In this document: one piece after another, positions 6,664-42,277 of the stretch
Layout: every line of letters starts with the position of its first letter
Numbering within the stretch: position 1 is the first letter of the stretch
Source of the DNA: a virus
Taxonomy: Duplodnaviria; Caudoviricetes
Virus record (IMG/VR): IMGVR_UViG_3300020576_006124
Location: 133,240 to 197,239 of that record
Length of the DNA: 64,000 nt
Direction: 5' to 3' (one strand)
Position numbers and translations under genes: made by a program
The notes under the pieces: model-generated
What the model saw: the letters and a program-made list of their open reading frames with translations, nothing else
Databases searched by the model: none
Told to the model about the DNA's origin: nothing

Positions 6664-6695
6664 CAAAAAATTGTGGGAGAAAGCCTCCCACAATT
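6664..6695 (-). terminator. Intrinsic terminator after major tail tube gene
   Basis: ATTGTGGGAG-GCTTT-CTCCCACAAT followed by a T-run on the minus strand. Confidence 0.75.
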
Positions 6696-6721
6696 AATAG
6701 AGTCAAACTATGGGCAACAGG

Positions 6722-7510
6722 TTATGATTTACCGTTCAGAACAGCAGGGGTTACACCATCAATGTCGATCTTCTTCCAGTGTCTGCGATGCTTACACACG
6801 AAGTTTACTGCTTGGGAAGAGGACATATCCGCAAGGGTCATCGAAAAGGCTTCCTGCAAGAACTCAACCCCAAACAAGACCATAGCAGAGACATTTCCAT
6901 CCTTAACAGCTACAATTGTAACATCAATTGGGGGAAGCTGATCTAAGTATTCGATCTTTCTGGATCCAATAAGTCGAGCAGCCACAATCATGTTGTTTTG
7001 AACCTGATCTTCAAATGCCGTAGAAGTAATTGTAGTAGGAACAAGGTCTACTGTAGTGGTGATAGATTGGTTTGATGTGGTAGAAGAGTTTACCCAGGAA
7101 GCTGTGACAACCTTCTTCGCAGCATAGGATGCAGCAGCGGAGTTAGGGTCCCAGAGATCCTTCTGAGTTATAGTGCCTCTCTTAGACAGACTAAGGTACT
7201 CTTCAAGAATGGCGTCCTTATCAGCCATAGAAAACATCATAGAACCCGCGATCTGTCTCTTGCCCTTTACTAGGCCCTGGCTGTCCTGCTGACCCATTTC
7301 CCAAATCTGGGCTCCATCTGTGGCAATACTGCACGAGATGGACTCAAGACGTGGCATACGCTTATGATTAAAGAATACATTAATATCGCCACCAGAGTAA
7401 AAAATTCTCTGGCCGGAATCAGATCCCAGATCCACATCCCCCAAGACCGTCTTGTCAAGGGGGCTATAAGAAGCGTGGGAGAACAGGTTTACTTGATCTT
7501 TATTTGCCAT
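6722..7510 (-). CDS. Major tail tube protein
   Basis: Immediately downstream of the sheath; GKRQIAGSMMF and DQLPPIDVTI motifs typical of large-myovirus tubes. Confidence 0.7.
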   Translation of the reverse strand: MANKDQVNLFSHASYSPLDKTVLGDVDLGSDSGQRIFYSGGDINVFFNHKRMPRLESISCSIATDGAQIWEMGQQDSQGLVKGKRQIAGSMMFSMADKDAILEEYLSLSKRGTITQKDLWDPNSAAASYAAKKVVTASWVNSSTTSNQSITTTVDLVPTTITSTAFEDQVQNNMIVAARLIGSRKIEYLDQLPPIDVTIVAVKDGNVSAMVLFGVEFLQEAFSMTLADMSSSQAVNFVCKHRRHWKKIDIDGVTPAVLNGKS

Positions 7511-7521
7511 TTCTTAATTCC

Positions 7522-9240
7522 TTACTGCTGAATGAACAGAGTGGATATAATATCCTTAATTGCATAAGCGGGCCAGATCCTCAAGTCTACCCGAACTCTT
7601 CCTACCTGAGAATCACCAGCAATCTGATAGATGTTCTGCAGGTATCCTACTCCCTCTCCCCCTCTCAGGGCTCCCATGTTTGCAAAGGCATCCATGACGT
7701 TAATAAGGGATGCAGTCATAGCTACCTTAGTAACCTCATCGTAGGGCTGACTTAAGAACGCATATAAACGATACTTAATAGTCTGCTGAATGGTGTTGCA
7801 CAAGTGAACTGTACTTTGATCCTTCAGGGAGTAGTCCCGAGCCGCACAGGTGGGATCGCTATAGATAACAGGGGATCCATTAGGGCTAATCTCATTATTC
7901 TGCAAGCAGACAATGCCACCACCACCAGACAATTCATCTGTAGCGGAAGCTCCGATGCCTAGATGCAGAAGCTTAGCGTATTTCCCTGAGGGAATTGGGC
8001 CATAAGCCTTAATACCACTAAGAGAGGTTTTAGCGATGGACTTCTGGGGAGGGGTAGACGCATATTTAGCCGCCACCGAAGCCGCCAAGTCCCAAACGTA
8101 ATCTCCGATTTCTGGATGGCTAAAGAGAGCCTCTCCAACCACAGCAGTCACATATGAACCCAGATCAACCGTACCACCCAGACTAGAATCAGTAAGACTC
8201 ATAGCATCCTTTCGAAGGAACCAACCTCCTTTATTCCATCTCAGGGTTGCATTATAGGCTCCTGAGGATGTAGACATAACGTTGTCCGTTAAGTATGTAA
8301 GGTAAGAGGAATAATCCTTGATTCCAGAAGGGCGAAAAGCCATAACACCATGGGCAGGCTGAACCTCCTTAGCATACTTATACAGGAAGACTGCAAAGTC
8401 TGTCAAGGCCGATTGGGTGGTAGTTGATCCAATCTTGTCGTCAATATGAAGCCCATCAACCAAAGCAACACTAAACAACTTCTTACGACCGATAAGCATG
8501 TCGTAGATACCTGTATCTGCTGTAGTTAAGGCTGTATTAAAGTTGGACAAATCGGATGCGTAATCCTCACCAGTGGCAATACATCCATCAGTACCTGCAG
8601 TGCTGACTGTCCCAGATCCTAGGGTGATAGTAGCCGGGGCACTTAAAGCAGAGAGCAAAGTACCCTCTTGTCCAGAGACTGCCGTAAAGGTAACTAGGTT
8701 CTGCCCTGCGTTCATGTAGTCACAAAGTTGTGAAACCGTAGTGGTTCCCGCATAAGAGCCAAAAGTGAATACTCCACCTTTAATGGCCGGTGTGGTCATT
8801 GTGACGGTGTAGTTTCCTGTAGACACAGCGAGTGCAAAGGTGATCTGGTTATAAATTCTACCGGGATTAAGGGCCGTAGCCACAATAGTGTTTACAGGGC
8901 TACCCCCCGAGGTAGCAAAACTGGTTGTAGATGCTTTGGTTCCCCCACCACGTACAGCCAAAATATTTGTAGCACCACCATCTATAAGTCGTTGGATACT
9001 CTTTACCAGAGTTGCACCAGCATCGGAACCATCCGAGGTACTGGTCACAGGACTTTTGTATCCATTTCGATAATCAGCCGGTCCAAAGATTCTAGATGCC
9101 TGAGCAGGAGAATCAATCTCAATAGGCTCCCCACTAGGACCGTCCTGAGCAGTACCGATAACTAAAACAGTTTCTGTTTGATTTTGTGGAGTGACTGCAA
9201 CGAGTCTATCTCCTTTAATTTCTAAAGTTACTCCAGGCAT
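7522..9240 (-). CDS. Tail sheath protein
   Basis: N-terminal MPGV...VLVIGTAQDGP; C-terminal VRVDLRIWPAYAIKDI; 572 aa. Confidence 0.85.
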   Translation of the reverse strand: MPGVTLEIKGDRLVAVTPQNQTETVLVIGTAQDGPSGEPIEIDSPAQASRIFGPADYRNGYKSPVTSTSDGSDAGATLVKSIQRLIDGGATNILAVRGGGTKASTTSFATSGGSPVNTIVATALNPGRIYNQITFALAVSTGNYTVTMTTPAIKGGVFTFGSYAGTTTVSQLCDYMNAGQNLVTFTAVSGQEGTLLSALSAPATITLGSGTVSTAGTDGCIATGEDYASDLSNFNTALTTADTGIYDMLIGRKKLFSVALVDGLHIDDKIGSTTTQSALTDFAVFLYKYAKEVQPAHGVMAFRPSGIKDYSSYLTYLTDNVMSTSSGAYNATLRWNKGGWFLRKDAMSLTDSSLGGTVDLGSYVTAVVGEALFSHPEIGDYVWDLAASVAAKYASTPPQKSIAKTSLSGIKAYGPIPSGKYAKLLHLGIGASATDELSGGGGIVCLQNNEISPNGSPVIYSDPTCAARDYSLKDQSTVHLCNTIQQTIKYRLYAFLSQPYDEVTKVAMTASLINVMDAFANMGALRGGEGVGYLQNIYQIAGDSQVGRVRVDLRIWPAYAIKDIISTLFIQQ

Positions 9241-9294
9241 TTTTGTTTGTTTTTCCTAATTTGTAGGTCTAATATAATAGAGTCCTAAAAAATC

Positions 9295-10131: not shown

Positions 10132-10133
10132 GA

Positions 10134-11540: not shown

Positions 11541-12077
11541 TTAAACCCCTTTGTAGCTTACTATTTTGTAGTTCCTGGTAATAGCTTTTCTTGCTGTAAG
11601 ATTATCTCCATCTAGAGCCTTGATATTATACTTACCCAAAGTATCGTCTCTCATTTGAGGACCTTGAGAGTCTATTACCTCAAAAACTTCTCTAATAGGT
11701 CCCACTTCGTATTTTCCATTTCTCAAGGAAATCACGCAATCCACAATTAAATCCCCACCCTTTATCCCCGCTGATAAAGGAAAGTGTGCCATTATATTGT
11801 AGTTTAGTAGATTACCTGGGGTTTCGTTATTTAGGTATTGAGAGGGATTAGTGAAATCATCTATCCTACCTTTTGAGGCGTAAGCAGAGTTCCTAACCCC
11901 TAAACCCTTGCAAAGCTCACATTGCAAGTCCTGGAATTTCTTGGACCTACTGTAACTGTCAAAATGCTTTGGACAAGCAAAATTGGAATCCATACTTACT
12001 ATTAGAAATACTTTTGCCCACTTGTCTATTTCTCTTTCTAAAATTTCTTTCGGGTTCATTAGAATCCTGTATTCCAT
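11541..12077 (-). CDS. Putative head closure/neck protein (Cys-rich)
   Basis: Synteny; C-P...CELCKGLG. Confidence 0.45.
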   Translation of the reverse strand: MEYRILMNPKEILEREIDKWAKVFLIVSMDSNFACPKHFDSYSRSKKFQDLQCELCKGLGVRNSAYASKGRIDDFTNPSQYLNNETPGNLLNYNIMAHFPLSAGIKGGDLIVDCVISLRNGKYEVGPIREVFEVIDSQGPQMRDDTLGKYNIKALDGDNLTARKAITRNYKIVSYKGV

Positions 12078-13603
12078 CCTTGACCATAGTAGGTCTGATT
12101 TTCTGTACTATATGGAAGCTTTGTAGTAAATGGGAACCACTCTCTAACACCGTAATCGGAGGGTTTGAAGTTCCCATATAGGCTCCCCACAGTAGCACCT
12201 AGTTGGGGGGGAGAAAGGTTATTTAGAATTGAGTTCGTAGCCACTATTCTTTCCTCATCTGCCCTAGCTTTTAGGTCCTGTAGAGCCTTTAAGAGGTCAT
12301 CTGTGACCTCTACACTATATTGCCCTACCTTAATAGAGGTCCCTATACTGAGGACGCTTTTATAGATTAAAGAATCCACATAAAAACACTTAGCAAAGGC
12401 ATGAGCCAGCCTAAAGAAATCAAAACTAGTTGGGTCGGTTGCAGCTACTACGTCTGATAGACTGGCAGTGTAGTCAATATTTTCATTAGCTACCAACCAG
12501 AATTGCTTAGCTAAAAGAGATCCTTTGTAAGATGTTTTTATTAGATCTGAGTTGGTGAAGTTGACCCCTGTTGGGAACTCAGACTTCATGGTTTCTATGT
12601 CTACATAGAAGGGATTAGGTTTTGTGAAGAAGTTATACGTGGAGGTCTCCCCTAGTGTGTAAGAGTCTCCAGTTACTGGTAGGCTAGAAGAGACGGTAAT
12701 TGAATATTCTGTGGTGTCAGAGATAGCAGTATTAAAAGTAATTGTTATTGTATTTGTTGAGGCTACAATAGTTACGTCTGCTGCCGTAAAAAACGGGGCC
12801 GTAGAGTACAGCTGATAACTCTTTTGTTTAACGGTAACATAATCCTCAGCAGAGGTCCCTAAGTTCTTACTAAAAGTAAGGGTCATCTCTGTCGGGTACT
12901 CTGAAAGAATCTCGTCTGTATCTGGAATGGTGGTAGATTCTATATAAAAAAGGGAGTCTAGAGTGTTATACTCGGACCCTCCACCTGCGGCTGTATAGTT
13001 AAACTGGAAAACTTCCGACCAGCCCCCAACACCCGAACCGTCTTTAGCTCTCACCCTCCAGCAATAGGTTTTGTTTAAAACGGGGGTAAATGTTGGGGTG
13101 TAAGTTTCTGTGGTCGGGGAGCTAGAAGAGACAACGGAACTAAAGTCCAAAGTGTCAGACAGCTCAAAATCGTATGCTGTAGCTCCTACAACATCTTCCC
13201 AATTGAAAGTAATAGGGGTATCTACTACATAGGTTGCGTCCGGGGGAACTAGTAGTGTGGGTGAAGTAAGGCTAGCAGGACTCGTTTTAAAATAGAATGC
13301 GTAAGTCTTAGTAGTTTTTCTTCCAATAGTGTCTTGGACCCCTGATAAAATACTTACTAAGTAGTTGTTGTCTGGTAATAGGCTGGCAGTGGGAGTAAGA
13401 ATGGTATTCTTTAGATCCGTCGCATCTATAGTTACAGCAATAGGGGTGTTTGTCTGGGCATCAAAAAGCTTTACAAGTCCTACAACAGTAGAAAACTGAG
13501 TTTCTTCCATATCCTGAGACCAGGATATTGTTATGTTAGGAAGAAGAGTAGAACTTAGCTCCGATGGGCTAAAATCTATGACTTTGGGAATGTTGTTAGC
13601 CAT
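12059..13603 (-). CDS. Ig-like/FN3-domain virion protein, probable head-tail adaptor
   Basis: Big_5-like repeats (ILTPTASLLPDNNY, YSITVSSSL), FN3-like YCWRVRAKD..GGWS; follows the major capsid gene. Confidence 0.6.
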   Translation of the reverse strand: MANNIPKVIDFSPSELSSTLLPNITISWSQDMEETQFSTVVGLVKLFDAQTNTPIAVTIDATDLKNTILTPTASLLPDNNYLVSILSGVQDTIGRKTTKTYAFYFKTSPASLTSPTLLVPPDATYVVDTPITFNWEDVVGATAYDFELSDTLDFSSVVSSSSPTTETYTPTFTPVLNKTYCWRVRAKDGSGVGGWSEVFQFNYTAAGGGSEYNTLDSLFYIESTTIPDTDEILSEYPTEMTLTFSKNLGTSAEDYVTVKQKSYQLYSTAPFFTAADVTIVASTNTITITFNTAISDTTEYSITVSSSLPVTGDSYTLGETSTYNFFTKPNPFYVDIETMKSEFPTGVNFTNSDLIKTSYKGSLLAKQFWLVANENIDYTASLSDVVAATDPTSFDFFRLAHAFAKCFYVDSLIYKSVLSIGTSIKVGQYSVEVTDDLLKALQDLKARADEERIVATNSILNNLSPPQLGATVGSLYGNFKPSDYGVREWFPFTTKLPYSTENQTYYGQGWNTGF

Positions 13604-13621
13604 CTATATAAATAGAGTCAC

Positions 13622-13652
13622 AAAAAGAAGGGGACCCCTTTCGGAGTCCCCG
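13622..13652 (-). terminator. Intrinsic terminator after major capsid gene
   Basis: GGGGACTCC-GAAA-GGGGTCCCC-TTCTTTTT. Confidence 0.85.
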
Positions 13653-13678
13653 ACCACAGAATGAGCAACCAAATAATC

Positions 13679-14872
13679 TTAGGCAGGCATTGATCGAACA
13701 GAGTAGACAGGGGCTCGGTTGGGGGCAATAACCACTCCAACAGTCTTAGCAACACCAGCACCCTTGTCCTTCAAGATAGCCTTGGTCTCTCGCTTAACCT
13801 TAAGACCTCGACCGTCTCGCCAGAATTCAGCTTCCTCAGCCATTTCCAGTGATCCCTTCTCAGCCAATGCAATGGAATCTTCCTTGCTAAGTGCGTAGAT
13901 ATCAGTATAACTAGCACCAGAGAAGTCTCCACCCTTGCTGTATCGCATGGGAGCATAGGGGACGTATTGAATGCCAAAAGGCATGTTCATCGACTGGTCG
14001 AATCCGGGAGCCGCACTCCAGATACTATTACCAATCTGTCCACCGTGCATGAAGGTAGCTCTCATAAACGGATCAGATGCAAAGATCGCCCAACCCATCG
14101 GATGAGTTAGAACGTGAGTCACGTTCTTCTCAAACGACATGGGGATAGCAACCAGGTCCACCAAGTCCTCATAGCTAAACGTTCCATTAGCCGTATCCGA
14201 GCTGTCAACACCCTTGGTGGCGTAGCCGGAACCAGTGCTGTTTCCAGTGGAGTTGTCAGCCGCAACGTTATAAGTGCCTGTAAGGGCCGTATAGCAGTTG
14301 CTTTCAACAAGTCGGTTAACAGCGTTAGCACACTTCTTCATCAGAAGAGCAGCCGTATTGAGGTTTCTATTGTCAAGAGCCTCATCAGGAAGGATGTAGC
14401 CGATTCCCTGCTTTCCAACTCGAATAGCACCCGTTCCTTCCATGAGAGCCATATTAGCCATCTGGTACTCTTGACCAGGAGCCATCTCAGTAGCAACGAA
14501 TGCTGACGAGTCAAGCAACTCAAGGGTCTGGGTGTTTGACACCATAGGAACCTTCTCAGCAATGTTCTCAGAAAGGAACAGTGCAGGCTCCTTCTCAGTA
14601 ACGAGAACCCGAGTAACTACTTCTCGGATAATTCCGTCCAGCTGAGAAGCTGAAACCATGTCCTTGATAGACAGGTCAAGACTTCCCTTCCCAGAGAAGG
14701 CATCAAAAATCTTGTTGGAAAGGAGCTTTCGTTCCGAAGAATACGCTTCTAAATCGGAAAGAGTTGCGTCCTCTGCTGACTTACCCGCTCTTGTTAAGAA
14801 TTCGGAGAAGTCAGGATTCTTCTGCATTCTCTCTCGGGCTTTATCTTTAATTGTATCGAGTAATGATTTCAT
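13679..14872 (-). CDS. Major capsid protein (HK97-fold)
   Basis: 397 aa; after protease and decoration genes; EMAPGQEY, VGKQG, VLTHPMGW; followed by a strong terminator. Confidence 0.8.
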   Translation of the reverse strand: MKSLLDTIKDKARERMQKNPDFSEFLTRAGKSAEDATLSDLEAYSSERKLLSNKIFDAFSGKGSLDLSIKDMVSASQLDGIIREVVTRVLVTEKEPALFLSENIAEKVPMVSNTQTLELLDSSAFVATEMAPGQEYQMANMALMEGTGAIRVGKQGIGYILPDEALDNRNLNTAALLMKKCANAVNRLVESNCYTALTGTYNVAADNSTGNSTGSGYATKGVDSSDTANGTFSYEDLVDLVAIPMSFEKNVTHVLTHPMGWAIFASDPFMRATFMHGGQIGNSIWSAAPGFDQSMNMPFGIQYVPYAPMRYSKGGDFSGASYTDIYALSKEDSIALAEKGSLEMAEEAEFWRDGRGLKVKRETKAILKDKGAGVAKTVGVVIAPNRAPVYSVRSMPA

Positions 14873-14939
14873 TTCTTCCTATTCTTATATAGAGTCAGGC
14901 TTGAGAGGAGGAGTGTTTAGTTCCTCCTCTCACTTTTCC

Positions 14940-16295
14940 TTAGTTAGCCCAGAAGATCAGTTCTCCTGAGACCCCAGAAGCGTTCAGGTGAGCGGGGGTA
15001 CCTGCACCTGTTCCAGAAATTGCACCATCGGTCAAACCAATCTGACCGGGAGCAAAGTTGGGAGTGAATGGACTCGTGATCTGCTTGTAGGTGATTCGAG
15101 CAGCAGTAATCGTCAGAGCAGACGAGAACTGAACTCGACCTTCAACCCAGTCAACACTGTGATACTTGCCGATCAATCCGCTGTGGACCGTCTGATATCG
15201 AGTATCGTTAGCATTCGGCAGGGTGTACCAATCCGAGGCAGAGTACGAAGTAACCGTACCACCATCGTTCACAGTACCCTGAATCTCAATCGTAACGGCT
15301 GAACGAGGATCAATGACAACGTTCTTGCTTGACTGAAGAACGTAACCGGCGCCACCAGAAACCGTAAAGGTCACAGCAGAGCGATCGGCCGTAGTCATAG
15401 CAACCATGTCCCCGAACAACTCAGAGAGAGGCCCCTCGTAAGAACCTGTCTTCACATAGGGGAATAGCTTATCATATTCCCTAACGTTGGACAACGGATT
15501 GATTCGGACTAGCTCTCCGCCAATCTGATCGGCATCCTGGCCGTAAGTGAACCAGACCTCCTGGGCGGTTGTACCACTGTACTTCCAAAGGTTGGTCGAA
15601 GTATTCCAAACCAGGTTCGAAGCGTTGGTCGCAGATACTGCGGAACCCGCGTTGTTCTTAACACCAACGATCTGAGGAAGAACACCAGCGAGGTTAGCAC
15701 CAGTCAGGTCAATGTTAGTGGAGTTAGAACCGTTATTGACGTAGTAGGTCGCTTGCGGCTTAAACTTAACCTGAGCACCTCGAAGAGCAAACTGCTGATT
15801 CGAGAGAGAAGCAGTGTAAGCCGTGTCTGCGGTCAGTCGAGTAACGGCACCAGCGTGAGCCGTAAGTCGATCACCAGCAGCAAGAGTACCATAAGCATCG
15901 CTGATAGCTGCAACATATGCGACAGAGCACTGTGCATTCTTAACAACAACAGCATCGGGCATCGTGTGAGCGCCAGAACTGTCTTGGGCAGGCTTCGCCA
16001 TATTCTGATGAGCAACACCCATAGGCTTAACGGTAAGACCGTTTGCCGTAGTAATAGGAGTTCCTCTGTCGGTTGCCGAGTTTGCGAGGGCAGTGTTGCC
16101 CTTTCCAATTCCGACAAATCGACCACTCAGGATTGCGAGAGCACCAGTCGGGCCGTAGGTTGCCTGAGCAACCTGGGGCAGTGTGGGATCTACGAAATAG
16201 TGTCCGACAAGTGTCTGAGCAGAGGGGTTAACTGCAGCAGTACCCGTCCACACGACTTCTCGTAACTTTTCACCTGTGATAATGTAACTACTCAT
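14940..16295 (-). CDS. Putative capsid decoration/cement protein
   Basis: Between protease and major capsid; Gly/Ala/Thr-rich beta-type protein. Confidence 0.55.
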   Translation of the reverse strand: MSSYIITGEKLREVVWTGTAAVNPSAQTLVGHYFVDPTLPQVAQATYGPTGALAILSGRFVGIGKGNTALANSATDRGTPITTANGLTVKPMGVAHQNMAKPAQDSSGAHTMPDAVVVKNAQCSVAYVAAISDAYGTLAAGDRLTAHAGAVTRLTADTAYTASLSNQQFALRGAQVKFKPQATYYVNNGSNSTNIDLTGANLAGVLPQIVGVKNNAGSAVSATNASNLVWNTSTNLWKYSGTTAQEVWFTYGQDADQIGGELVRINPLSNVREYDKLFPYVKTGSYEGPLSELFGDMVAMTTADRSAVTFTVSGGAGYVLQSSKNVVIDPRSAVTIEIQGTVNDGGTVTSYSASDWYTLPNANDTRYQTVHSGLIGKYHSVDWVEGRVQFSSALTITAARITYKQITSPFTPNFAPGQIGLTDGAISGTGAGTPAHLNASGVSGELIFWAN

Positions 16296-16363
16296 TTTTT
16301 ATTATTTTCTCGGCAACTATATCTACTAGAGGTTAATTACTGTCAAATATAATAGAGTTCTGT

Positions 16364-18163
16364 TTAAAACCCTAAAACTTTAAAAGCATCCTCCTGAGAT
16401 AGCTCGTGGTTTGCAGACGTTCCGCCAGTATCTGAGTCCTCAACAGAGGATACGGAAGTTGGGGAGGTTACGGTCTGGGTACTGTCCTCACTCTCTACCT
16501 TTTTATGGTTTCGAATAAGCTTTGATAGGGTGGAGCTAGAGAGTATTGAGTATCTCTTTGCGTCCTCCTCAAAATCCGACACGTCTAAGTTAACACTTTT
16601 AACTACAGAGTAAAGCGAAGCTAGAAGAGTTCTTGTGTCTTTGGGATCTAGATTAACGAAATTGTCTACCAAATCAAAGACCGAAAGAGAAAGAGTTTTA
16701 CTATTTTCCAAATCTTCGATTGAAAGAGTAGACTTATCTTTTGTATCTCGGGCTTGAATTAGGGAGCTAACAGTAGAGTCAAGGGTCTTAATCTGATCTT
16801 CTGACAGAAGGGGTTTCAAGGATTCCACTTTAGCGAGACCCTCTTCATCCAGTTTAATGGTCATGTCTGCGATTTGCAAGAAGCTATCAGTAGTGATTGA
16901 TACTAATGCCAGCTTCTTGTCAAGGGCCTCTAGGTGCTCTCCCATAGTTTCGGTCAGAGAGAGTAAGGTATCCACTGTGAGAGTGCCCTCTTCTAGAAGC
17001 AAATGGACAGCCTCTCTCTCAGCGTCTGAGAGACTTGATTCTAGCAGTTTAGAGAGACCCACTACTCTGGTCCCGTCTAAAAGAACCAAAGATTTATACG
17101 GAAAGTCCACATGTGCAGTATCCTCAGCACCGGTCTCTGTGCCTTCAGGTGCATTATCCTCTGGAGTTGTATTTAAAATGTCTTCTGGTTTCTGTTTGGC
17201 CATATTTCTGTCCTGAAGAATTACAAAACTCTGTTTCGTGCTTTTAATAGAGTCGGTAATTCCGATTAATCCACAAACTTCTTTTACTTTTTCTTTAGTA
17301 GCAATGTCAAAAAAGCCATAAGAATCTTTAGACCCTGTAATTTTCTCCGCTACTAACAATCTTGAGTCAACCTCTTCTCTCCCTATATCCCCACTAAGGG
17401 TATACGCGGAAGTGTCTGCGGGGGTGTTTACGTAAGATAGCTCCTTGAATTGAATCCCACTATAGATTAAATAGGACAAGTGTTCTTTTTTGTCTACGGT
17501 GTATGTTTTACCTGTTTCATATGGAGGAAATTCATCCCACATCTCTTTTTTGTAGAGATCTACTAAGTCCAGCCCACTGATACTCTCAAAAACTTGAGCG
17601 GAACGAGCCCCTATAGATACGGTATGATATCTTCCTCCAAGGACCTTTTCTATCTCTGCATCACCAGTAATAGCAGCAACTACCGATATATGCCCAGACC
17701 CATTAGCAAAACCTGGGTACAAGGAATCTTTACAAGGTATTCTTTCGCTTTTTGGCCTTTTAATGAAGGACGAAGAGATTATTCTCCCACAGGGCTCATC
17801 GGCACTAGTCCCGAACCAGCTATCACCGGAACGATGCTCGGTAATAACTGGGCAATTGTAGGGATAAATAAAGGACTGATGGCCCGTAGTGTCTTCAGGG
17901 TAAGAAGGATCATAAGAACCTTCCAACTCGCTGGCCGGGTAGTATCTGTAATTTAAGTTTAGTTTGTCACTATGACAAACTCTGATTTCAGGGTAGACAG
18001 CTTTGACGTCTTTCTCTGAAATCTCTGATAATATACTATCTTTGACTAGAGCATTTTCACTATCCCGAGAGTTATTAATCATTACTGAGTAGGAGTCAAA
18101 AATTGCTCCACCCGAACTCCCAGCCTGAAACCCTAGTATTTCTTGGATTTTCTTCTTATCCAT
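16364..18163 (-). CDS. Prohead protease fused to acidic scaffold-like C-terminus
   Basis: ITEH, EPCGRI, RYHTVSIG, ELSYVNTPAD protease motifs; helical acidic C-terminal half. Confidence 0.8.
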   Translation of the reverse strand: MDKKKIQEILGFQAGSSGGAIFDSYSVMINNSRDSENALVKDSILSEISEKDVKAVYPEIRVCHSDKLNLNYRYYPASELEGSYDPSYPEDTTGHQSFIYPYNCPVITEHRSGDSWFGTSADEPCGRIISSSFIKRPKSERIPCKDSLYPGFANGSGHISVVAAITGDAEIEKVLGGRYHTVSIGARSAQVFESISGLDLVDLYKKEMWDEFPPYETGKTYTVDKKEHLSYLIYSGIQFKELSYVNTPADTSAYTLSGDIGREEVDSRLLVAEKITGSKDSYGFFDIATKEKVKEVCGLIGITDSIKSTKQSFVILQDRNMAKQKPEDILNTTPEDNAPEGTETGAEDTAHVDFPYKSLVLLDGTRVVGLSKLLESSLSDAEREAVHLLLEEGTLTVDTLLSLTETMGEHLEALDKKLALVSITTDSFLQIADMTIKLDEEGLAKVESLKPLLSEDQIKTLDSTVSSLIQARDTKDKSTLSIEDLENSKTLSLSVFDLVDNFVNLDPKDTRTLLASLYSVVKSVNLDVSDFEEDAKRYSILSSSTLSKLIRNHKKVESEDSTQTVTSPTSVSSVEDSDTGGTSANHELSQEDAFKVLGF

Positions 18164-19745: not shown

Positions 19746-19754
19746 TTTATTCTA

Positions 19755-24368: not shown

Positions 24369-24454
24369 AAATTAAAAAGCCCCTTTAGGGCAGGGGAGTG
24401 CTATGAGCACAATTCCATTACTCTATTCTTATATTATAATAGAGGTCTAGCTTC

Positions 24455-27836: not shown

Positions 27837-27857
27837 GGGAATAACACACTCCTAAAG

Positions 27858-27878
27858 AAATAGAGTCAGACTCTATTT
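27858..27878. promoter_or_regulatory. Back-to-back late promoter motifs
   Basis: AAATAGAGTC-A-GACTCTATTT perfect inverted repeat between divergent genes. Confidence 0.7.
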
Positions 27879-27892
27879 TAAGTAGGTTAAGA

Positions 27893-32199: not shown

Positions 32200-32271
32200 C
32201 AACTATGAGTTACTAAAAAACCTTTAGTATTAATATAGACGAGCACTTCTTTTCAAAGGTTTCAATTTTTT

Positions 32272-32949: not shown

Positions 32950-33139
32950 CTCTCTTATTGTACCTATCTTCTAGAAGACTAGTAGCAAGAAATATACCTA
33001 TTAAAGATATAATAACCAAAAAAATGTTTTTTTCTTCCAAAGAGAGATATAAGTCAAAAATCAAAAAAAGCCTAAGAATATGAATTACGGCTCTAGGCAG
33101 GGCGCAGGAAAATTCAAAGAGAATTTTGTTCTTCTTCAC
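32939..33139 (-). CDS. Small membrane protein
   Basis: 66 aa; hydrophobic segments. Confidence 0.45.
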   Translation of the reverse strand: MKKNKILFEFSCALPRAVIHILRLFLIFDLYLSLEEKNIFLVIISLIGIFLATSLLEDRYNKRDDY

Positions 33140-33731
33140 TTTTTTTGATTTTATCTATGTAGGAGGCAAGCTCAGATTTAGAGTCTCTTTCTTCCATCAA
33201 CCTGATATGAGACTTTTTATACTCTTCATAGAGAGAAGTAAGATCTTTTAAGTATTTTAAAGTTAGTTCTATACTACCAATCTCTAATACAGCCTGATCA
33301 GTACTTTTTCCTAAAGACTCAAGGGATTCAATGGAAGGAATCGTATCTCTTTTATTAGATAATTTACCTTTGGCATCCAAAGTCTTAAGTTTTAAGGACT
33401 TTGCCATTTCTTGCAAACTCTTAGTTTCGGCTGATTCGATTTTTAGTAAAACTCTTTCGAGAAAGTCCAGTCTCTTCTCAGCTAAATCCTGCCATTCAAT
33501 ATCTTTTTTTACTTCTTCTAGTATTTGGGGTATAAGGTTTTTTAACTGGTTGTGTCTATCTATTTGAGAAGAAGAGATCCACTGCACAAGGTGGGTACTC
33601 TTTGTGGCTATGTCTTCTAAAAGAGCCTCTACAGCCTCAGTGTTTAGATTTAAATCTACTTCGGAAAGAAAAAGTTCAGATAGACAGGCCCTTTCTTGGG
33701 TTAAAAATCTTTCTATTGAGGGATAAAACAT
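33114..33731 (-). CDS. Coiled-coil hypothetical protein
   Basis: E/K/L-rich; preceded by the late motif. Confidence 0.6.
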   Translation of the reverse strand: MFYPSIERFLTQERACLSELFLSEVDLNLNTEAVEALLEDIATKSTHLVQWISSSQIDRHNQLKNLIPQILEEVKKDIEWQDLAEKRLDFLERVLLKIESAETKSLQEMAKSLKLKTLDAKGKLSNKRDTIPSIESLESLGKSTDQAVLEIGSIELTLKYLKDLTSLYEEYKKSHIRLMEERDSKSELASYIDKIKKSEEEQNSL

Positions 33732-33738
33732 CCTAAAA

Positions 33739-33763
33739 TAAATAGAGGTAAAGACTCTATTTA
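33739..33763. promoter_or_regulatory. Divergent pair of late promoter motifs
   Basis: TAAATAGAGGT-AAA-GACTCTATTTA between divergent ORFs. Confidence 0.7.
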
Positions 33764-33779
33764 TAAAGAACTAATTGCT

Positions 33780-34127
33780 ATGATTAAAGTACCTGCCCAC
33801 TTAGCCACATTAACCCCCACTTCGGGGACTAGTGTAATCACTGGTTACATCTGTTTTAACGATGGTTCAACTAGAGTTGTCTCTTCTTTAAGCATTACTG
33901 GGAGCGGCACTTTAGGTGATTTTCTAGTAGGAGCTACTATTCTAACAGAGAATGAACTAGATAAGGTTCTGTTCTTTTACATTACAGAGGTTGCCGGGGC
34001 TGATTTTTACTGCGGGAGCCAAGGTATCTCTGGAGTGTACTCAGAAGACGCCCAGGTAGGCAATCTCTTGATACAAGTGGGTGTATATAACACTGATCCT
34101 TATAGATTAGGAGCTATTTTTAGTTAA
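33780..34127 (+). CDS. Hypothetical virion-associated protein
   Basis: 115 aa; first gene of the late-motif-driven tailspike cluster. Confidence 0.55.
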   Translation: MIKVPAHLATLTPTSGTSVITGYICFNDGSTRVVSSLSITGSGTLGDFLVGATILTENELDKVLFFYITEVAGADFYCGSQGISGVYSEDAQVGNLLIQVGVYNTDPYRLGAIFS

Positions 34128-35347
34128 TGGATTTAGTTGGCATTTCTTCATTATCAAAGGCAAATTCTACAGCAGTTAACCTAGTTTCAGAATATCCTGT
34201 AACTAACCCAGAGGTTATTGCTGCGTCTGTTGCAGCCATGAAAACTAGCAGAACTAGTATTATTGTGCTGGGGGACTCTAACACGAATCCAGGCTACGGA
34301 TGTGACTCGAAATATCAGCACAACTGGGCTTTTCTATTCACCCGTGGGATGCAAGAATTATTAAAAAGGCCTGGAGGTTTTGGGTTTGCGCCTTTCTGTG
34401 TGATGTCTGGTTCTGCGGGGGCTACTGCCTGGACAAGTAGGCTAGGAACCGCTATTTCTTCGGACAACGTGACACTGGTAGGGACTGCGGCCTATAATGG
34501 TCAATGGATTGCGGCTCCTGGTATGTCTGTCATGCGTGGCACAGCTGGAACTGCTACCAGCATCACCCAAACGATTGGAGAGGCCATTGGCACATCAAAC
34601 CAGATCACGATTCTGGGATTAAATCAGGGAGGAGGTACTATTGGGATTACAGTCAATGGGCCAGGCACTACCGACTCGGTAGCTTCTACTTCTGGTGCTG
34701 AGACTGTATTCACTAAGAGTCTTACGTTTACCGTTGGTACTGGTACTTCAGTCACGATTGCATTCTCCTCAGGATCGACTTGGACCTCTGGGTGTATCTA
34801 TGACCGGTCTGATCTGGACGGGCCGACCCTATTCAACTTTGCACATCATGGAAGAAGATTAGTGGATGATGGTACCAGTGCAACAGGGTTTTATAGAGCA
34901 AACAACTCTAATGGAATCACCAACAATATAGCCACTTATTCAAGCAGAACTCCTGCCATGGTGATTGTTCCTACATGGCAAAATGATGCGGCAAGTTCAT
35001 CTGTTGACCTGGTCACTTTCGAGGCTGGGATGCAAGCGATTGTTACTAGAGCAATTGCTGTGGGGACCAGGGTAGTATTTATAAACTCATTAAAGCCCCA
35101 TGTGTTAGATAACAATCCTGCCAGCTACTCTACCCAAAGAAGAATAGTGGCCTCTCTTGCGGCTGCTAATCCTACTGTGGTTGCTGTTATAGATGAAGCT
35201 TTTGCTTTTGATTTTTGGGGGGATTTCCAGAACGCGCTTGTTGCTGGAGGTGTGGTGAACCTAAGGTTTGACGCATCACACTACAACCAAACTTTCCATC
35301 ATCTTAGGGCTAGTAGCCTTCTAAAGATCTTCAAAAAATACATATAA
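34127..35347 (+). CDS. SGNH/GDSL-hydrolase-domain virion protein
   Basis: VLGDSNT, WQND, DASHYN. Confidence 0.75.
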   Translation: MDLVGISSLSKANSTAVNLVSEYPVTNPEVIAASVAAMKTSRTSIIVLGDSNTNPGYGCDSKYQHNWAFLFTRGMQELLKRPGGFGFAPFCVMSGSAGATAWTSRLGTAISSDNVTLVGTAAYNGQWIAAPGMSVMRGTAGTATSITQTIGEAIGTSNQITILGLNQGGGTIGITVNGPGTTDSVASTSGAETVFTKSLTFTVGTGTSVTIAFSSGSTWTSGCIYDRSDLDGPTLFNFAHHGRRLVDDGTSATGFYRANNSNGITNNIATYSSRTPAMVIVPTWQNDAASSSVDLVTFEAGMQAIVTRAIAVGTRVVFINSLKPHVLDNNPASYSTQRRIVASLAAANPTVVAVIDEAFAFDFWGDFQNALVAGGVVNLRFDASHYNQTFHHLRASSLLKIFKKYI

Positions 35348-35352
35348 AAAAA

Positions 35353-36900
35353 ATGGACTTAGTTGGTATTCCGGAATCGGTCAGTCTTCTGAACTCAGAA
35401 GAAATTATCTCTTCTTTAAAATCTACTCAAAATGGGTGGGGGTCTTTTGTTCCTGTTTGCTATAGCCCAAGTGGGGCTATTCCTATGTCCAGAAGAAGTA
35501 CTTCAACGAGGTCTAATGCGTCTAGTATACCTCAACCATTTGTCGTAGACACTGAGGGGTTTATACGACTTCTTTATATAAATTGTTACAACAACACTGG
35601 GTCTAGTCGGGCTGAAGACCCCATGTCATCAGCCCTAAGCATTCAGGATTATGTAGTCTTCCCTAATGGTGAAGAGCACCCAGTAACATTCACTCAGAGT
35701 GGGGGTTACATAGGCACTGCCCCCACTTTAGGGTTCCTACTCTCAGATCCCATAAGGTGCAGTGCAGACTTTACAAGAAACCAGGAAATTAGAATTAGAT
35801 CGAATAAGTCTGTGGCTACTGCTGGCTCCAATATGTTCCCAGAAAACTGGGTTGCATGTGATCCTACTAGTACTGGTGCCTCTATGCAATGGGATGCCAC
35901 TAACGTACTTGCGGATGTATCCACAGTTGCGTCTAGATCCACTGCAATTACAAATGACATAAATAGTAGGTTAGCGTTTGTTCCCATTATTTTAGGGAAG
36001 CCTAAAGTCTCAGTAAAGGTAATAGGAGTAATAGGACACTCTTTCTTTAACAGGTTCGGTCCAGTTTATGGGTCTAGTCCGGCGTATACTGAGTGGGGAA
36101 AGTCGGGGATAATAGGGAGAGCCCAAGCCCTCAAATCAGCCTGCGTAGTGAATGTTTGTGCTGCATCTGAATCATATGCTACCCTCGCAGCAAATGGATG
36201 TGTGGCCCTTAAAACTATTCGTCTACCATTATTGATGGGCTGTGATAGAATTTTGCTGGCTCCACCAGTAAACGACGTTCTTAGTTCTAGAACATCCACG
36301 CAGATGATGAACGATATAGCCTCTGTCCGAGCTTTTATCACTGCTGCTACGGGAATAACAGATTTCTGGTACTCTACTGTTCCCCCACTAGGCTCAACAT
36401 CAGATAATGGGGTCCTTGCTTCTAACTTCACTGTGGGGGCTAACGAATCTAATAGAACGGCTGTAAATACTGCTATTAGATCTCTGGCTGGATCTAAGCT
36501 AATAGATATTGACGCAGATATCATTACACAGGGGGGTACTGGAGGAAAGTATCCAGACGCTACTGTTTTTACGACTAAAGCAACTACAGCCGCCAACGCC
36601 AATCTATTAACTTGGACAGAAGCAGCCCCTAATGGGTATGGGTACTACTACCATATGGCCGCCAAGGCAAAAACAGGGACTGCTGGGAATATAGGCCAGG
36701 CAAGGCTTGTTAGTGGATCTAGGGATAATGGGTCTAATGTTGTTCGTGTAGATTTAAATTCCGGTTTATCTTTTGCTACTACTATTGGAGACACGTTCGA
36801 CATCTACAAACTGTGGACGACGGACGGCACCCACCCAGGACACTTGCAGATCGACCGGTGGGCGGCACTGATGACCGTCAGCGGAGGGCTTTTCGGCTAA
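35353..36900 (+). CDS. SGNH-hydrolase-domain tailspike-like protein
   Basis: VIGHSF, PVND, TDGTHP. Confidence 0.7.
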   Translation: MDLVGIPESVSLLNSEEIISSLKSTQNGWGSFVPVCYSPSGAIPMSRRSTSTRSNASSIPQPFVVDTEGFIRLLYINCYNNTGSSRAEDPMSSALSIQDYVVFPNGEEHPVTFTQSGGYIGTAPTLGFLLSDPIRCSADFTRNQEIRIRSNKSVATAGSNMFPENWVACDPTSTGASMQWDATNVLADVSTVASRSTAITNDINSRLAFVPIILGKPKVSVKVIGVIGHSFFNRFGPVYGSSPAYTEWGKSGIIGRAQALKSACVVNVCAASESYATLAANGCVALKTIRLPLLMGCDRILLAPPVNDVLSSRTSTQMMNDIASVRAFITAATGITDFWYSTVPPLGSTSDNGVLASNFTVGANESNRTAVNTAIRSLAGSKLIDIDADIITQGGTGGKYPDATVFTTKATTAANANLLTWTEAAPNGYGYYYHMAAKAKTGTAGNIGQARLVSGSRDNGSNVVRVDLNSGLSFATTIGDTFDIYKLWTTDGTHPGHLQIDRWAALMTVSGGLFG

Positions 36901-36903
36901 AAG

Positions 36904-37842
36904 ATGTTTGAATATCTTAGAGCTGAAGCTCAGTACCATTCGGCACTGCTTAAAATAAATGGTTACACTGAGGGTGGAAGGCCGTTAGTGGGAAATTATT
37001 ACTCACAGAAGGGGCTACTCAATGTGGAAGAGGCCCTTTCTCTTAAATTACTGGGCACAGCTTACTACGACAACGATCCTAATAGAATTAAATACAAGAA
37101 GATAGTTCTAGATAAGGAGTATATACCCTTTAACAGACCCCCTAGTACTGATAATTTAGCTGTCTCTTATCAAATTTTGGAGGAGGGAGGAGTTATCTCT
37201 GATAAGGTGGTTAGAAATGGGCAGAGCCTGGATTGGAGTAATGGAGGAAGTGTAGCTTTGGGCTCAAGGTCTTCAGGATCGAAGGTCAATCGGATGATTG
37301 CAAAAAACAATTCCTTCATCAGAAACTCCGGGTCGGGTCTTAGTATTTACAATGTAAACGATTTTGAAGTCTCAAACTGTACTTTTATAGACTGTTGTGA
37401 GAAGACAGAGGATTTAGGATATCTTTATACCTGGGGCCGCAACCAATCTAGTGGTGGAGTTGTTAAAAATTGCTCTTTCATCAATACTAGAGCGATAAGA
37501 AAAGGCAGAGGCTGGCCCCAAGCAGGATTTGGAATTACAGCCCCCTATGGTGCTTGGGTTTATGGCGTACAGATAGATGATAATAGAGGTGATGTTATCA
37601 TTGATAATTGCTTTTTTGATGGTTTAACAGTTGCCATTATTATCAATGGAGGAGACAATGTCATTATCAGAGACTGCACCTTTGGGCCAAGAACTAAAAT
37701 GCATCTTTGGGTAATAGGCGGAGGGAAAGTGTTAGTTGAAAATAGCCCCACCTTTGATCAAAATAAAGTTCTCCATCACACAGGTATTCCTCAAATATTT
37801 AATAATTCTGTTTTAATTTCGCCCCAACACTCTCTTATTTAA
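36904..37842 (+). CDS. Right-handed beta-helix protein
   Basis: Repeating VSNCTF/VKNCSF/IDNCFF/IRDCTF; EDLGYLYTW. Confidence 0.7.
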   Translation: MFEYLRAEAQYHSALLKINGYTEGGRPLVGNYYSQKGLLNVEEALSLKLLGTAYYDNDPNRIKYKKIVLDKEYIPFNRPPSTDNLAVSYQILEEGGVISDKVVRNGQSLDWSNGGSVALGSRSSGSKVNRMIAKNNSFIRNSGSGLSIYNVNDFEVSNCTFIDCCEKTEDLGYLYTWGRNQSSGGVVKNCSFINTRAIRKGRGWPQAGFGITAPYGAWVYGVQIDDNRGDVIIDNCFFDGLTVAIIINGGDNVIIRDCTFGPRTKMHLWVIGGGKVLVENSPTFDQNKVLHHTGIPQIFNNSVLISPQHSLI

Positions 37843-37897
37843 CTGTAAGTTAAGCTCTATTAAACTTGAAAGTATAGTAATAAAAAAGTTACTTTAA

Positions 37898-38104
37898 ATG
37901 GACCATCTTTATCTAATTTTTCTTTTATTTGGGCTACTATTTCTTTCTACAGCGATGCTCTTTGTAGTTTCCGTTCATGTAAAGCAGTTTCTTGCTTCTA
38001 TGGACAAAAGCACAGAGATGCTACAAAAAATGGGGGAGGCTATAAATAAGAAAAGTGGGGTATTAGAAAAGATGGTTAGCGTTTTAGAGGAGAAAAAGAA
38101 GTAA
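37898..38104 (+). CDS. Small membrane protein
   Basis: N-terminal TM segment. Confidence 0.6.
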   Translation: MDHLYLIFLLFGLLFLSTAMLFVVSVHVKQFLASMDKSTEMLQKMGEAINKKSGVLEKMVSVLEEKKK

Positions 38105-38106
38105 GT

Positions 38107-38409
38107 ATGACGTCGGACATTCTTATCCCAATTGCCACTACCTTAATTACAGGAGCCATCGTAGGACTAGTAGGATACCTGCTTGCTATTTATCGGGCAG
38201 ATCCTAAGCAACTGAAAGAAGATATTTCTTCTATGAGAGAAGAAACAAAAAAAGAACTTTTCTCTATGAGAGAAGAAAATAGGAGGGAATTTCTGACTTT
38301 AAGGAAAGAGGTCTCCGAGGAATTTAGGGAGGCTAGGGCAAAAATGGACAGCATCAGCGACAGGTTGGCTCACCTTGAAGGTGCTACAGGGACTGGTAGG
38401 AAGTTATGA
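38107..38409 (+). CDS. TM + coiled-coil protein (holin/lysis-associated candidate)
   Basis: N-terminal TM, repeated SMREE coil, RLAHLEG. Confidence 0.5.
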   Translation: MTSDILIPIATTLITGAIVGLVGYLLAIYRADPKQLKEDISSMREETKKELFSMREENRREFLTLRKEVSEEFREARAKMDSISDRLAHLEGATGTGRKL

Positions 38410-38654
38410 GCACAGGAGGGGGAACTGTAGATCCTGGTAAGGTGGACTTGTGTATAAAAGGGGAATGGACAAGCCAAATTGTAATAGACGGTAATGTTTA
38501 TATAGCGGCCGGAGCGCAAGTAAATACTCCGGGGCCAACTACTATCACGGGGCAACTAAAAATAAATTTGTCAGGGGGAACTTCGGTACATTTGGGGGGA
38601 CCAGTATCAGTTGGGAGCCAATCAATAGGAACCGATCCAGTGCCATGCGAGTAA
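38406..38654 (+). CDS. Hypothetical protein
   Basis: 82 aa; overlapping start/stop. Confidence 0.55.
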   Translation: MSTGGGTVDPGKVDLCIKGEWTSQIVIDGNVYIAAGAQVNTPGPTTITGQLKINLSGGTSVHLGGPVSVGSQSIGTDPVPCE

Positions 38655-40788: not shown

Positions 40789-40797
40789 TTTAGGATA

Positions 40798-41355
40798 CTA
40801 GTATACTACTTCAATAGACTCGACTAGATCAAGTTTATAATGCTTTTCTGTGCTCTGACCCTTTCTCCAGCCAGAAACAAATAGGAAGGGTTGGGTCTCA
40901 AGGAAGTGAGTTTTAGCATCTGACCACTCTTCTGTAAACGGTGCCCCCCTTTTCATGTAGGTAATCCTAGTAAGGGGAAGTCTAGGGAGATCTACCTCTT
41001 CTGGTAGAGCTTCCATGACCAATAGAACGCTAAAATCTGCATCGTATTCACAAGGAAGAGGTTTCACTTCTCCATCCTTATCCATAACATGAGTTGCCTT
41101 TGCACCCTCTGCCAATTGGATAGGGATGTATCCATCAGGAAGATTGTACTCTAAGGTGGTTGTTTTCTTCATCTTAGTGTTAATGTTCATAGGTTCTTGG
41201 GTTTCTTTTATAAGCCACCCTTTAAGAGATCTTGAATATAGACAGGGGAGTTCTTTTACAGACCCATCAAAGTCCCAAACATGGGTTGCCTGTTTTGGAT
41301 CTGATGTTAGAGTGTATCCTAAGGGAAAATGTTGCAGGAAGTTAAATGCGCTCAT
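40798..41355 (-). CDS. Hypothetical protein with internal repeat
   Basis: Two copies of P.GY...ATHV.D.DG.VK.LPC.Y. Confidence 0.65.
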   Translation of the reverse strand: MSAFNFLQHFPLGYTLTSDPKQATHVWDFDGSVKELPCLYSRSLKGWLIKETQEPMNINTKMKKTTTLEYNLPDGYIPIQLAEGAKATHVMDKDGEVKPLPCEYDADFSVLLVMEALPEEVDLPRLPLTRITYMKRGAPFTEEWSDAKTHFLETQPFLFVSGWRKGQSTEKHYKLDLVESIEVVY

Positions 41356-41628
41356 ATTGGTTTTATATATTTCTCTGGTGTGATGCTAGGAGGTAGAGGG
41401 TGGTCTGGGATAACGACATCTGGTGGTTGTGGAGAGGGTACTGGCTTGGAGGGGCAAAGTGCTCCGGGAATGCTTCATAGGGTGTCTGCCCAAGTAACTC
41501 CGCAACCTCTTTATGGACGAGGGAATAACAGACGCCTGGACCCGGGTTCCTTTGATGTAAAGTTGTGCGTACTGACTAGAGGGCCTAGATACCAGGTGCT
41601 TGTACTCCATAACTATGATTTTAGGCCA

Positions 41629-42102
41629 TTAAGACCCAACTCTCTCCTCTGTTCCTTCCCAGACAAACTCCTCTACAGGAAAATGCTTACCACAGCCTAT
41701 ACAGAAAGTATTTCCGTAGAAATTGGGGTTTCTTGCATATGTCTCAGCAATATCCTTACTCATCCCTGTAACTGCTCCACAGTTTACAGAATCAAGTTGT
41801 CTCTGAGTCCAAAATCTACCAACTAAACAAGAGTCTGAGTTCTTAGGATATTCCTCATAAAGAACATATTCGTATTTACCGTGCTCTTCTAGTTCTTCTG
41901 GGGTAAGTGGCCGAGTTTCATATGTAGGGGCTATGCCCACATGCACGTAGGTTTGTCTTAACGGTCTAACAAACCCCTTAGATCTCTCTTCCTCTGAGAG
42001 AACCAAATATCTCTCATACTGGCCGTTGGATTTTAAGGTGCCATTAGGGTTGCCCAGATCTACTGCAGCACCGTCAGTAGTAGCAATATTCTCAGTATCC
42101 AT
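41629..42102 (-). CDS. Phage hypothetical protein with Cys motif
   Basis: YLVLSEEERSKGFVRP...CGAVT...FCIGC. Confidence 0.7.
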   Translation of the reverse strand: MDTENIATTDGAAVDLGNPNGTLKSNGQYERYLVLSEEERSKGFVRPLRQTYVHVGIAPTYETRPLTPEELEEHGKYEYVLYEEYPKNSDSCLVGRFWTQRQLDSVNCGAVTGMSKDIAETYARNPNFYGNTFCIGCGKHFPVEEFVWEGTEERVGS

Positions 42103-42180
42103 TACTTTAATCCATTATACCCTCCACATATACCTTATGCGGTTATATAAAGAATTTCTGCTGAAAAAAAATAGAAAAAA

Positions 42181-42254
42181 CTTCTGAGGGAGTTTTATGC
42201 AGTTACTCCCCAGGCGAAATGATTAACCAGTGCGATCTCACCGCTGCAATACCC
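42181..42254 (-). ncRNA. Candidate small structured RNA/attenuator with pseudoknot
   Basis: Begins ~8 nt after a late motif; TGCAG/CTGCA, GGTGAGAT/ATTTCGCC and GGGAGT/ACTCCC pairings; ends in a T-run. Confidence 0.45.
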
Positions 42255-42277
42255 TATTATTATAGAGGTAAAAAACC

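Follow-up and report, generated by a model that had tools for sequence, protein, structure and literature searches.

The heptamer CTCTATT probably acts as a single-box late promoter with phage-encoded specificity in an uncultured phage, of which a stretch of 64,000 nucleotides (nt) was analysed here (hereafter the window: bases 133,240-197,239 of the 197,239-base-pair (bp) IMG/VR virus record IMGVR_UViG_3300020576_006124, which has a guanine plus cytosine (GC) content of 38.5% and an estimated completeness of 85%). In this reading the CTCTATT box would start the transcription of the structural and packaging genes and of others that are presumably late: its core would span roughly -14 to -7 relative to a purine start at +13/+14, a -35-type element would be unnecessary, and several transcripts would be leaderless or very short-leadered. 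Recognition would depend on a determinant carried by the phage and not on the host housekeeping sigma factor; this determinant may be a divergent polymerase candidate with a DxDGD motif or an unrecognised sigma-like factor. Unless marked "genome", coordinates are given in window numbering; the position of a site is that of the first C of CTCTAT, and within the motif the first C of CTCTATT is numbered 0 (W, A or T; R, purine; M, A or C; Y, C or T; N, any base).

Enrichment, orientation, gene association, flank conservation and conservation across relatives were computed directly. Open reading frames (ORFs) were roughly called in the 197-kilobase (kb) genome (269 genes, 93.6% coding), and the 80 nt upstream of genes were submitted to an unbiased k-mer screen, made without any assumption about the motif and repeated with 65-nt upstream windows: CTCTATT was the top 7-mer and GACTCTAT the top 8-mer. 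Intergenic CTCTATT was found 18 times in the genome, versus 4.25 ± 2.0 in first-order Markov simulations, and intergenic [AG][AC]CTCTAT[AT][AT] 15 times versus 1.25 ± 1.2 (maximum of 5 in 200 simulations). The enrichment over background named as a test in an earlier sequence-only reading of the window did not hold for the bare 8-mer CTCTATWW over the whole window (22 copies versus 18.5 ± 4.1 expected) but did hold for sense-strand copies of CTCTATT in noncoding upstream windows (15 versus 0.81 simulated, maximum of 5 in 300 simulations); the signal is thus the position of the copies. When the genome was scanned with a 20-position matrix, 16 places reached at least 16 bits, versus 1.5 in simulated genomes.

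The placement of the copies follows the organisation of the genome. Window positions 1-27,836 form the end of a minus-strand structural and packaging block of ~75 kb, and beyond 43 kb the window is occupied by a plus-strand block of small genes and six transfer RNA (tRNA) genes. All six tandem gaps of at least 25 nt in the minus-strand structural block contain a sense copy, versus 3 of the 41 plus-strand tandem gaps (Fisher p = 8e-6); other copies of the structural block are in a shorter gap (genome 105133) or beneath an over-extended ORF call (6702). Downstream of the motif are the genes for the sheath, the major capsid protein, the portal (variant copy), the terminase and an immunoglobulin-like (Ig-like) protein. 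In the plus-strand early region, the motif heads isolated minus-strand genes: an HNH endonuclease gene (genome 6231, strong site), a gene of 90 amino acids (aa) at genome 29166 (strong site) and a three-gene island at genome 23900 (weak site). The two divergent junctions of the window (56 and 48 bp) consist essentially of two back-to-back copies, each directed toward its own gene. Because the motif is restricted to structural, packaging and a few other genes, "late" is the natural name for this class, the timing being taken from gene content only.

All the copies listed in the sequence-only reading were recovered in place and on the expected strands, with minus-strand cores at 6702, 9282, 13617, 14894, 16357, 18214, 18269, 24444, 27865, 33747 and 42267 and plus-strand cores at 27871, 33755 and 37855. 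The copies were said to face the downstream gene always, which is generally correct, with one exception: the plus-strand copy at 24421, the inverted partner of 24444. None had been noticed in intergenic gaps beyond 43 kb; cores do occur there (44923, 57036 and 57810 on the minus strand, 56044 on the plus strand), but without the flanking consensus or facing the wrong way.

For the anatomy of the element, 19 sites were chosen solely by the core CTCTAT[AT] and a position just upstream of a gene, and were compared with the 93 other genomic core copies, which have background frequencies at the flanking conserved positions. T occupies -5 in 14 of the 19 sites (22 of the 93 other copies), a purine is found at -2 in 17 and A or C at -1 in 15; A/T is conserved at +7 to +9, G occupies +13 in 12 sites (18 of the 93 other copies), and +14 is A in 13 and a purine in 18. 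The consensus in this phage is T-N2-R-M-CTCTATT-(A/T)5-6-G-A, with conservation over ~20 bp and 7 invariant bases, and 17 of the 19 sites scored at least 12 bits in leave-one-out scoring. The lack of a -35 element, already remarked upon in the sequence-only reading, was borne out: from -25 to -10 the composition of the 19 sites is flat, with no conserved position, and where copies stand back to back there is no space in which an upstream element could lie.

The start codons are in register with the element. Among 54 sites from four genomes, +11 is the earliest position of the first in-frame ATG, which accumulates between +11 and +16; it is exactly at +14 at 13617 and at genome 29166, and the longer-spaced sites carry a Shine-Dalgarno sequence after +12 (e.g. 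AGGAAG at 14894, TAGGAG at 27865). This register, together with the conserved G-A, would place CTCTATT at roughly -14 to -7 and would make several messenger RNAs (mRNAs) leaderless. From these patterns we infer an RNA start at the motif, its exact +1 and expression late in infection, as well as what reads the element: the start site would be at about +13/+14 from the first C, i.e. 6-7 nt past the last T of CTCTATT, near the distance of about 8 nt proposed in the sequence-only reading though not identical with it.

Relatives were collected by a HMMER search with the portal protein, the family of which lies at 27-43% identity: 40 aligned sequences gave 13 IMG/VR loci in about eight lineages, with ~30% portal identity. 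Three whole records were compared: G001 (194 kb), G002 (IMGVR_UViG_3300020576_005257; 235 kb, 95% complete) and G003 (101 kb, 51% GC). IMG/VR accessions of relatives also include 3300020576_005620 and 3300033067_001111. CTCTATT was the top upstream 7-mer in G002 (12 versus 2.1) and in G003 (10 versus 0.8, p = 2e-8), and its sense counts in noncoding upstream windows were 14 versus 1.2 in G002, 8 versus 0.3 in G003 and 5 versus 0.65 in G001. The core is invariant and the flanks are lineage-specific (-1 is C in G002 and G003, G in G001 and A in this phage), with T at +7 and purines at +13/+14 retained across the relatives; in the GC-rich G003 only CTCTATT is retained, not a TATAAT-like hexamer.

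Orthologous genes carry the motif despite 25-35% protein identity: the sheath gene (G002, G003), the gene for the Ig-like protein after the capsid terminator (G002, G003), the terminase gene (G003, 29 nt upstream), the HNH gene (G003) and the gene of a 1248-aa protein (G001). In four of four genomes the motif also stands before the syntenic ~1200-aa gene transcribed divergently from the packaging module; the back-to-back pair at this syntenic packaging junction has an offset of 6 in L011 and L018 and of 5 in L012, and is wider in G001 and G002. The order of terminator and then motif also recurs in G001, G002 and G003.

Two other upstream words were noted. A second single-box motif, (C/T)AACACTAA, occurs in the relatives 13-23 nt before start codons and ranks next after CTCTATT among the upstream-enriched words of G002; it was located on the minus strand of G002 at 27095, 30350, 115227, 145253, 157097 and 196143 and on its plus strand at 85803, and in G001 at 179007 and 191019 (minus) and 31373 (plus). 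It is rare in this phage, with one candidate at genome 113019. As it has the frame C-N-C-T-A-W-W in common with CTCTATT, it could represent either a variant or another class of promoter. In addition, GACCTRAYTAC is found in four exact plus-strand copies at the start of the early block (43136, 44279, 47105 and 47371); with one mismatch allowed, its count (7 versus 4.1) is not above chance.

The promoter reading put forward in the sequence-only account fits the placement and orientation of the copies, their position after terminators, the divergent pairs, the restriction to the structural block and to opposite-strand islands, and the conservation in relatives. A promoter is the best explanation because the copies fill gene junctions, stand after terminators, keep a fixed register to a purine and to start codons, and are conserved amid diverged gaps. 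Several observations weigh against it. The core by itself is unspecific, with 68 copies in the genome of which ~50 are within genes, and two of the chosen sites (genome 20790 and 23900) are poor matches to the extended consensus (<12 bits in leave-one-out scoring). Among the relatives, CTCTATT is not the top upstream word in G001, where its enrichment is weaker, only 30-50% of the structural-block gaps contain the motif, and no copy precedes the major capsid orthologues. At 6702 a hairpin lies 3' of the motif, with the predicted start inside its 5' arm, and a weak hairpin with a T-run (24396-24380) lies in the 76-nt terminase leader after 24444; with such terminator-like hairpins between motif and gene, initiation inside the stem or read-through would be needed at these two sites. 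Finally, no search confirmed the polymerase identity of the DxDGD candidates.

Phage-brought specificity has to be weighed against a promoter of the host type, in which host RNA polymerase (RNAP) with its own sigma factor would read TATTWT as a -10 box and CTC as an unusual extended -10. This alternative, which we regard as unlikely, draws on several resemblances: the hexamer at +3 to +8 (TATTAT, TATTTT or TATTTA) differs from TATAAT by only one or two changes, its invariant A (+4) would match the critical -11 A of a host-type -10, the predicted start 6-7 nt past the hexamer is the geometry of sigma-70, and the late block uses intrinsic terminators. However, the invariant part is CTCTATT and not the hexamer: only 11 of 19 sites have T at the position equivalent to -7, and G often follows CTCTATT in the 51%-GC relative. 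Neither a -35 nor a TG element is present, and the early plus-strand genes have almost no copies of the motif. The same heptamer, not a TATAAT-like hexamer, is conserved in phages of 36-51% GC that probably have different hosts, and sigma-70-like matches in the window are at chance (37 versus 36.7, 43 versus 39.2 and 47 versus 38.0); it is from these two results that a specificity brought by the phage is argued.

CTCTATT could also be the site of a phage late regulator (an activator, a repressor or a DNA-bending protein) that overlaps promoters and is not contacted by the polymerase. The frequent inverted pairs (27858-27878, 33739-33763, 24421/24444 and genome 20767/20790) resemble dimeric operators, and the core alone is too short for specificity; most strong sites are nevertheless single and oriented, the spacing within pairs varies from 5 to 43 bp among relatives, unlike a fixed dimer site, and the fixed register to G-A and to the earliest start codons points to the -10 position, where activators rarely bind, so that we consider a regulator site improbable. 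An RNA-level signal in a polycistronic late mRNA (an endonuclease processing site, a 5'-stabiliser or a translation signal) appears very improbable: its copies would be on the coding strand in intergenic gaps, some near hairpins, as processing sites are and as is observed here, but the 48-56-bp divergent junctions are too small for an upstream promoter, isolated opposite-strand genes are headed by copies, and a distance to the start codon of 11 to 87 nt excludes a role in ribosome binding. The variable spacing to the start codon had likewise led to the rejection of a ribosome-binding signal as a candidate explanation; a chance A/T-rich word was rejected too, as was a repeat or mobile element, the conserved stretch being only ~20 bp long.

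The individual sites of the minus-strand block are as follows. GACTCTATTAAT (6688-6707, C at 6702, minus strand; 18.6 bits in leave-one-out scoring) lies between the stop codon of gene 6722-7510 and a hairpin with a T-run (6695-6669); the ATG of the following gene (5333-6660) is near 6660, and its protein matches phrog_9206, a major-head-like family. The best-scoring site, GACTCTATTATA (9268-9287, C at 9282, minus; 22.2 bits in leave-one-out scoring), is 42 nt before the tail sheath gene (7522-9240, minus; PHROGs). GACTCTATTTAT (13603-13622, C at 13617, minus; 16.7 bits) comes directly after a terminator: an intrinsic-terminator hairpin of 9 bp (7 GC) with a T-run (13630-13651, minus) follows the major capsid gene immediately 5' of the motif, with a folding energy of -19.8 kcal/mol (z = -2.6). 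The sequence-only reading had set the ATG 8 nt after this motif; the actual distance from the 12-mer is 4 nt. This ATG, at +14, belongs to the gene of the Ig-like 514-aa protein (12059-13603, Big_5 domain), the mRNA of which is predicted to be leaderless.

GACTCTATATAA (14880-14899, C at 14894, minus; 12.0 bits) is 22 nt before the gene of the HK97-type major capsid protein (13679-14872, minus; PF25209, phrog_3922), with the AGGAAG Shine-Dalgarno sequence in between. Directly 5' of it, after gene 14940-16295, is a hairpin of 11-13 bp (14902-14932, minus) that has no U-tail on the minus strand (-20.6 kcal/mol, z = -4.9; 0 of 200 shuffles equally stable). AACTCTATTATA (16343-16362, C at 16357, minus; 19.4 bits) is 62 nt before that same gene (14940-16295), which encodes a 451-aa protein; labelled "decoration" in the sequence-only reading, this protein has no Pfam or PHROG match.

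GGCTCTATTATC (18200-18219, C at 18214, minus; 14.9 bits) falls within the 3'-terminal part of the portal gene and precedes a 599-aa gene (16364-18163) by 51 nt. The neighbouring copy at 18269 (7.9 bits) and the copy at 17252 (3.7 bits) are poor matches to the extended consensus. In relatives, two or three CTCTATT are clustered in the gene between portal and capsid, 150-490 nt before the next start (L011:14499-14553, L010:11710-11743 and L017:13609-13661), some of them in repeated P-S-I-S-like codons; these clusters may be compared with 17252, 18214 and 18269. A one-mismatch variant, GGCTCTAATTTA (19751-19770, C at 19765, minus; 14.2 bits), emerged from the matrix scan as a mere candidate, at a distance of 20 nt from the start of the portal gene (18156-19745, minus; PHROGs/Pfam); in the relative L009/L010, an exact CTCTATT stands 25 nt ahead of the portal gene. 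ACCTCTATTATA (24430-24449, C at 24444, minus; 18.3 bits) is 76 nt before the large terminase gene (21219-24368, minus), the 1049-aa product of which contains an intein splicing domain (PF14890) at residues ~380-589.

The first divergent pair (27851-27885, both strands; minus C at 27865 and plus C at 27871; 18.9 and 16.8 bits) forms a 10+1+10 palindrome in the 56 bp that separate the packaging module (27075-27836, minus) from the gene of a 1215-aa DxDGD protein (27893-31540, plus). The second pair (33733-33769, both strands; minus C at 33747 and plus C at 33755; 14.4 and 12.9 bits) occupies the 48-bp gap between gene 33114-33731 (minus) and an operon for GDSL-like and beta-helix proteins (33780-37842, plus). 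AGCTCTATTAAA (37850-37869, C at 37855, plus; 13.7 bits) precedes small ORFs (37898-38654) by 43 nt, and ACCTCTATAATA (42253-42272, C at 42267, minus; 16.4 bits) is followed by ~165 untranslated nt before ORF 41629-42102. The leader after 42267 (42150-42254, minus) contains a hairpin and a long U-rich tract, with a fold no better than that of shuffled sequences (z = 0.34); it may represent an attenuated leader or yield a short late RNA. The six tRNA genes of the early region are on the plus strand at 49225-51387 and 63133-63204.

Candidate readers of the motif were sought by homology. Domain searches with Sigma70_r2 and Sigma70_r4 gave no match, and T4 gp55 (L056:3601-4158) gave none at E <= 1 in this phage and in G001-G003, by a sequence search only and for a protein whose relatives can be very divergent. 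The T7-type RNAP family (PF00940) was not matched in this phage and in G001-G003, a weak negative since the control genomes also lack the family; searches with canonical beta-prime domains (PF00623, Rpb1_2) and with RNA-dependent RNA polymerase (RdRP) families gave no match.

The clade has three conserved DxDGD proteins, of 743 aa ("RNAP B"), ~1200 aa and 369 aa. The 743-aa protein (52663-54894) has homologues in three of five relatives, namely G002 (split in two), G003 (DFDGD) and G005; none was found in G001 and G004. It has no tblastn match in cultured phages and no detectable homology to YonO or RdRP, and neither it nor the 1215-aa protein has a Pfam or PHROGs match. PDB profile searches with the candidate polymerases gave no match, nor did PDB sequence searches with two ORFs of a proposed miniature split polymerase; in the ESM Atlas the sole lead, to eukaryotic-type RdRP, stayed below threshold (score 0.85), and the AlphaFold models of the 743-aa and 369-aa proteins (predicted local distance difference test, pLDDT, of 44 and 37) were too poor to judge the fold. 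When the 743-aa and ~1200-aa families were aligned with hhalign, the probability was <1%, and a paralogy of "RNAP A" and "RNAP B" is thus unsupported.

The sequence-only reading had suggested "RNAP B" or another phage factor as the reader; the searches lend no support to an assignment to "RNAP B", and the other two DxDGD proteins are equally good candidates. The gene of ~1200-1270 aa is found at 27893-31540 in the window and at L057:232-4014 (G002), L049:6596-10414 (G001) and L058:107-3703 (G003). DxD(G/A)D is at an equivalent position in the four genomes (residues ~197-228), and most pairs of these proteins are unalignable by BLAST; the protein evolves very fast and is possibly a virion-packaged polymerase. 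Since its gene stands behind a copy of the motif, it would fit a late-made, packaged enzyme, which therefore would not be the reader of the motif. The 369-aa protein is encoded at genome 42059-43168 (L004:4059-5168; GDADGD) and in G002 at 50556-51815 (GDGDGD); in this phage its gene stands just upstream of those of the proposed split enzyme (together genome 42059-47650). That CTCTATT is the cognate promoter of an unrecognised, extremely divergent class of phage RNAP (the 743-aa protein, the 369-aa protein or an adjacent proposed split enzyme) is a tentative proposal, to which we give somewhat less than even chances; a bare 7-bp box and a start site would then suffice for initiation.

The phage is distant from cultured phages: megablast gave no DNA match to them, and the best cultured portal matches by tblastn, to Bacillus phage 0305phi8-36 and Moorella phage MTATph1, have 24% identity. 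The 451-aa protein (14940-16295) has no tblastn match in cultured phages, a search in which the major capsid protein itself was not queried. Closer relatives are known from their proteins, with 88% and 54% identity for a protein encoded next to the capsid gene and 57% for the 743-aa protein; searches of viral and metagenome contigs for related loci yielded none.

The promoters of uncultured jumbo phages are almost unknown, and a full-text literature search found no paper on CTCTATT as a phage late promoter. Here, a compact signal appears to mark late transcription units across a clade of at least eight lineages with 36-51% GC and portals ~30% identical. The motif can serve as an annotation handle for the genomes of this clade, suggests which genes are made late, including that of the 1200-aa DxDGD protein that may be packaged, and provides a defined template for a biochemical test of the polymerase candidates of the clade. 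If the reader were a minimal two-barrel polymerase, a very small orthogonal transcription system would be at hand.

The late promoters of T4 consist of TATAAATA at -10 and are read by host RNAP with gp55, gp33 and the gp45 clamp. The present element resembles them as a single short A/T-rich box near -10, with no -35, that stands before structural genes and often right after terminators; it differs in its sequence, R-M-CTCTATT-W-W with two invariant C and not TATAAATA, and in that no gp55 homologue was found. A bacterial sigma-70 promoter has TTGACA-like -35 and TATAAT-like -10 hexamers spaced by 16-18 bp; the present element has no -35, and G003 does not conserve the hexamer that follows CTC. 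Unlike the T7-type promoter of ~23 bp, it is conserved over only ~20 bp, with 7 invariant bases.

For YonO, the single-chain two-barrel RNAP of the SPbeta prophage, one late start has been mapped and the promoter sequence has yet to be determined (PMC5467207). Were any of the DxDGD proteins a YonO-like enzyme, CTCTATT would be the counterpart of that late promoter; no homology to YonO was detected here. Among jumbo phages, the late promoter of the AR9 non-virion RNAP is A-11 ACA-N6-T-A/G+1 and that of phiKZ is T-3 ATG+1 (PMC7598289). This phage is likewise a jumbo phage with candidate polymerases of its own and a short signal from about -14 to +1 without an upstream element, and the succession of a conserved block, about six unspecified bases and a purine start recalls the AR9 element in particular. 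The sequence itself (CTCTATT-N6-GA) is unrelated to those of AR9 and phiKZ, and no canonical beta or beta-prime domains were detected. In the polymerase-encoding jumbo phages studied so far, late promoters were not bioinformatically predictable (PMC7598289), whereas CTCTATT is evident in a plain k-mer screen; if its reader is indeed a divergent RNAP of the phage, it would be the first late promoter of such phages that is readable directly from sequence.

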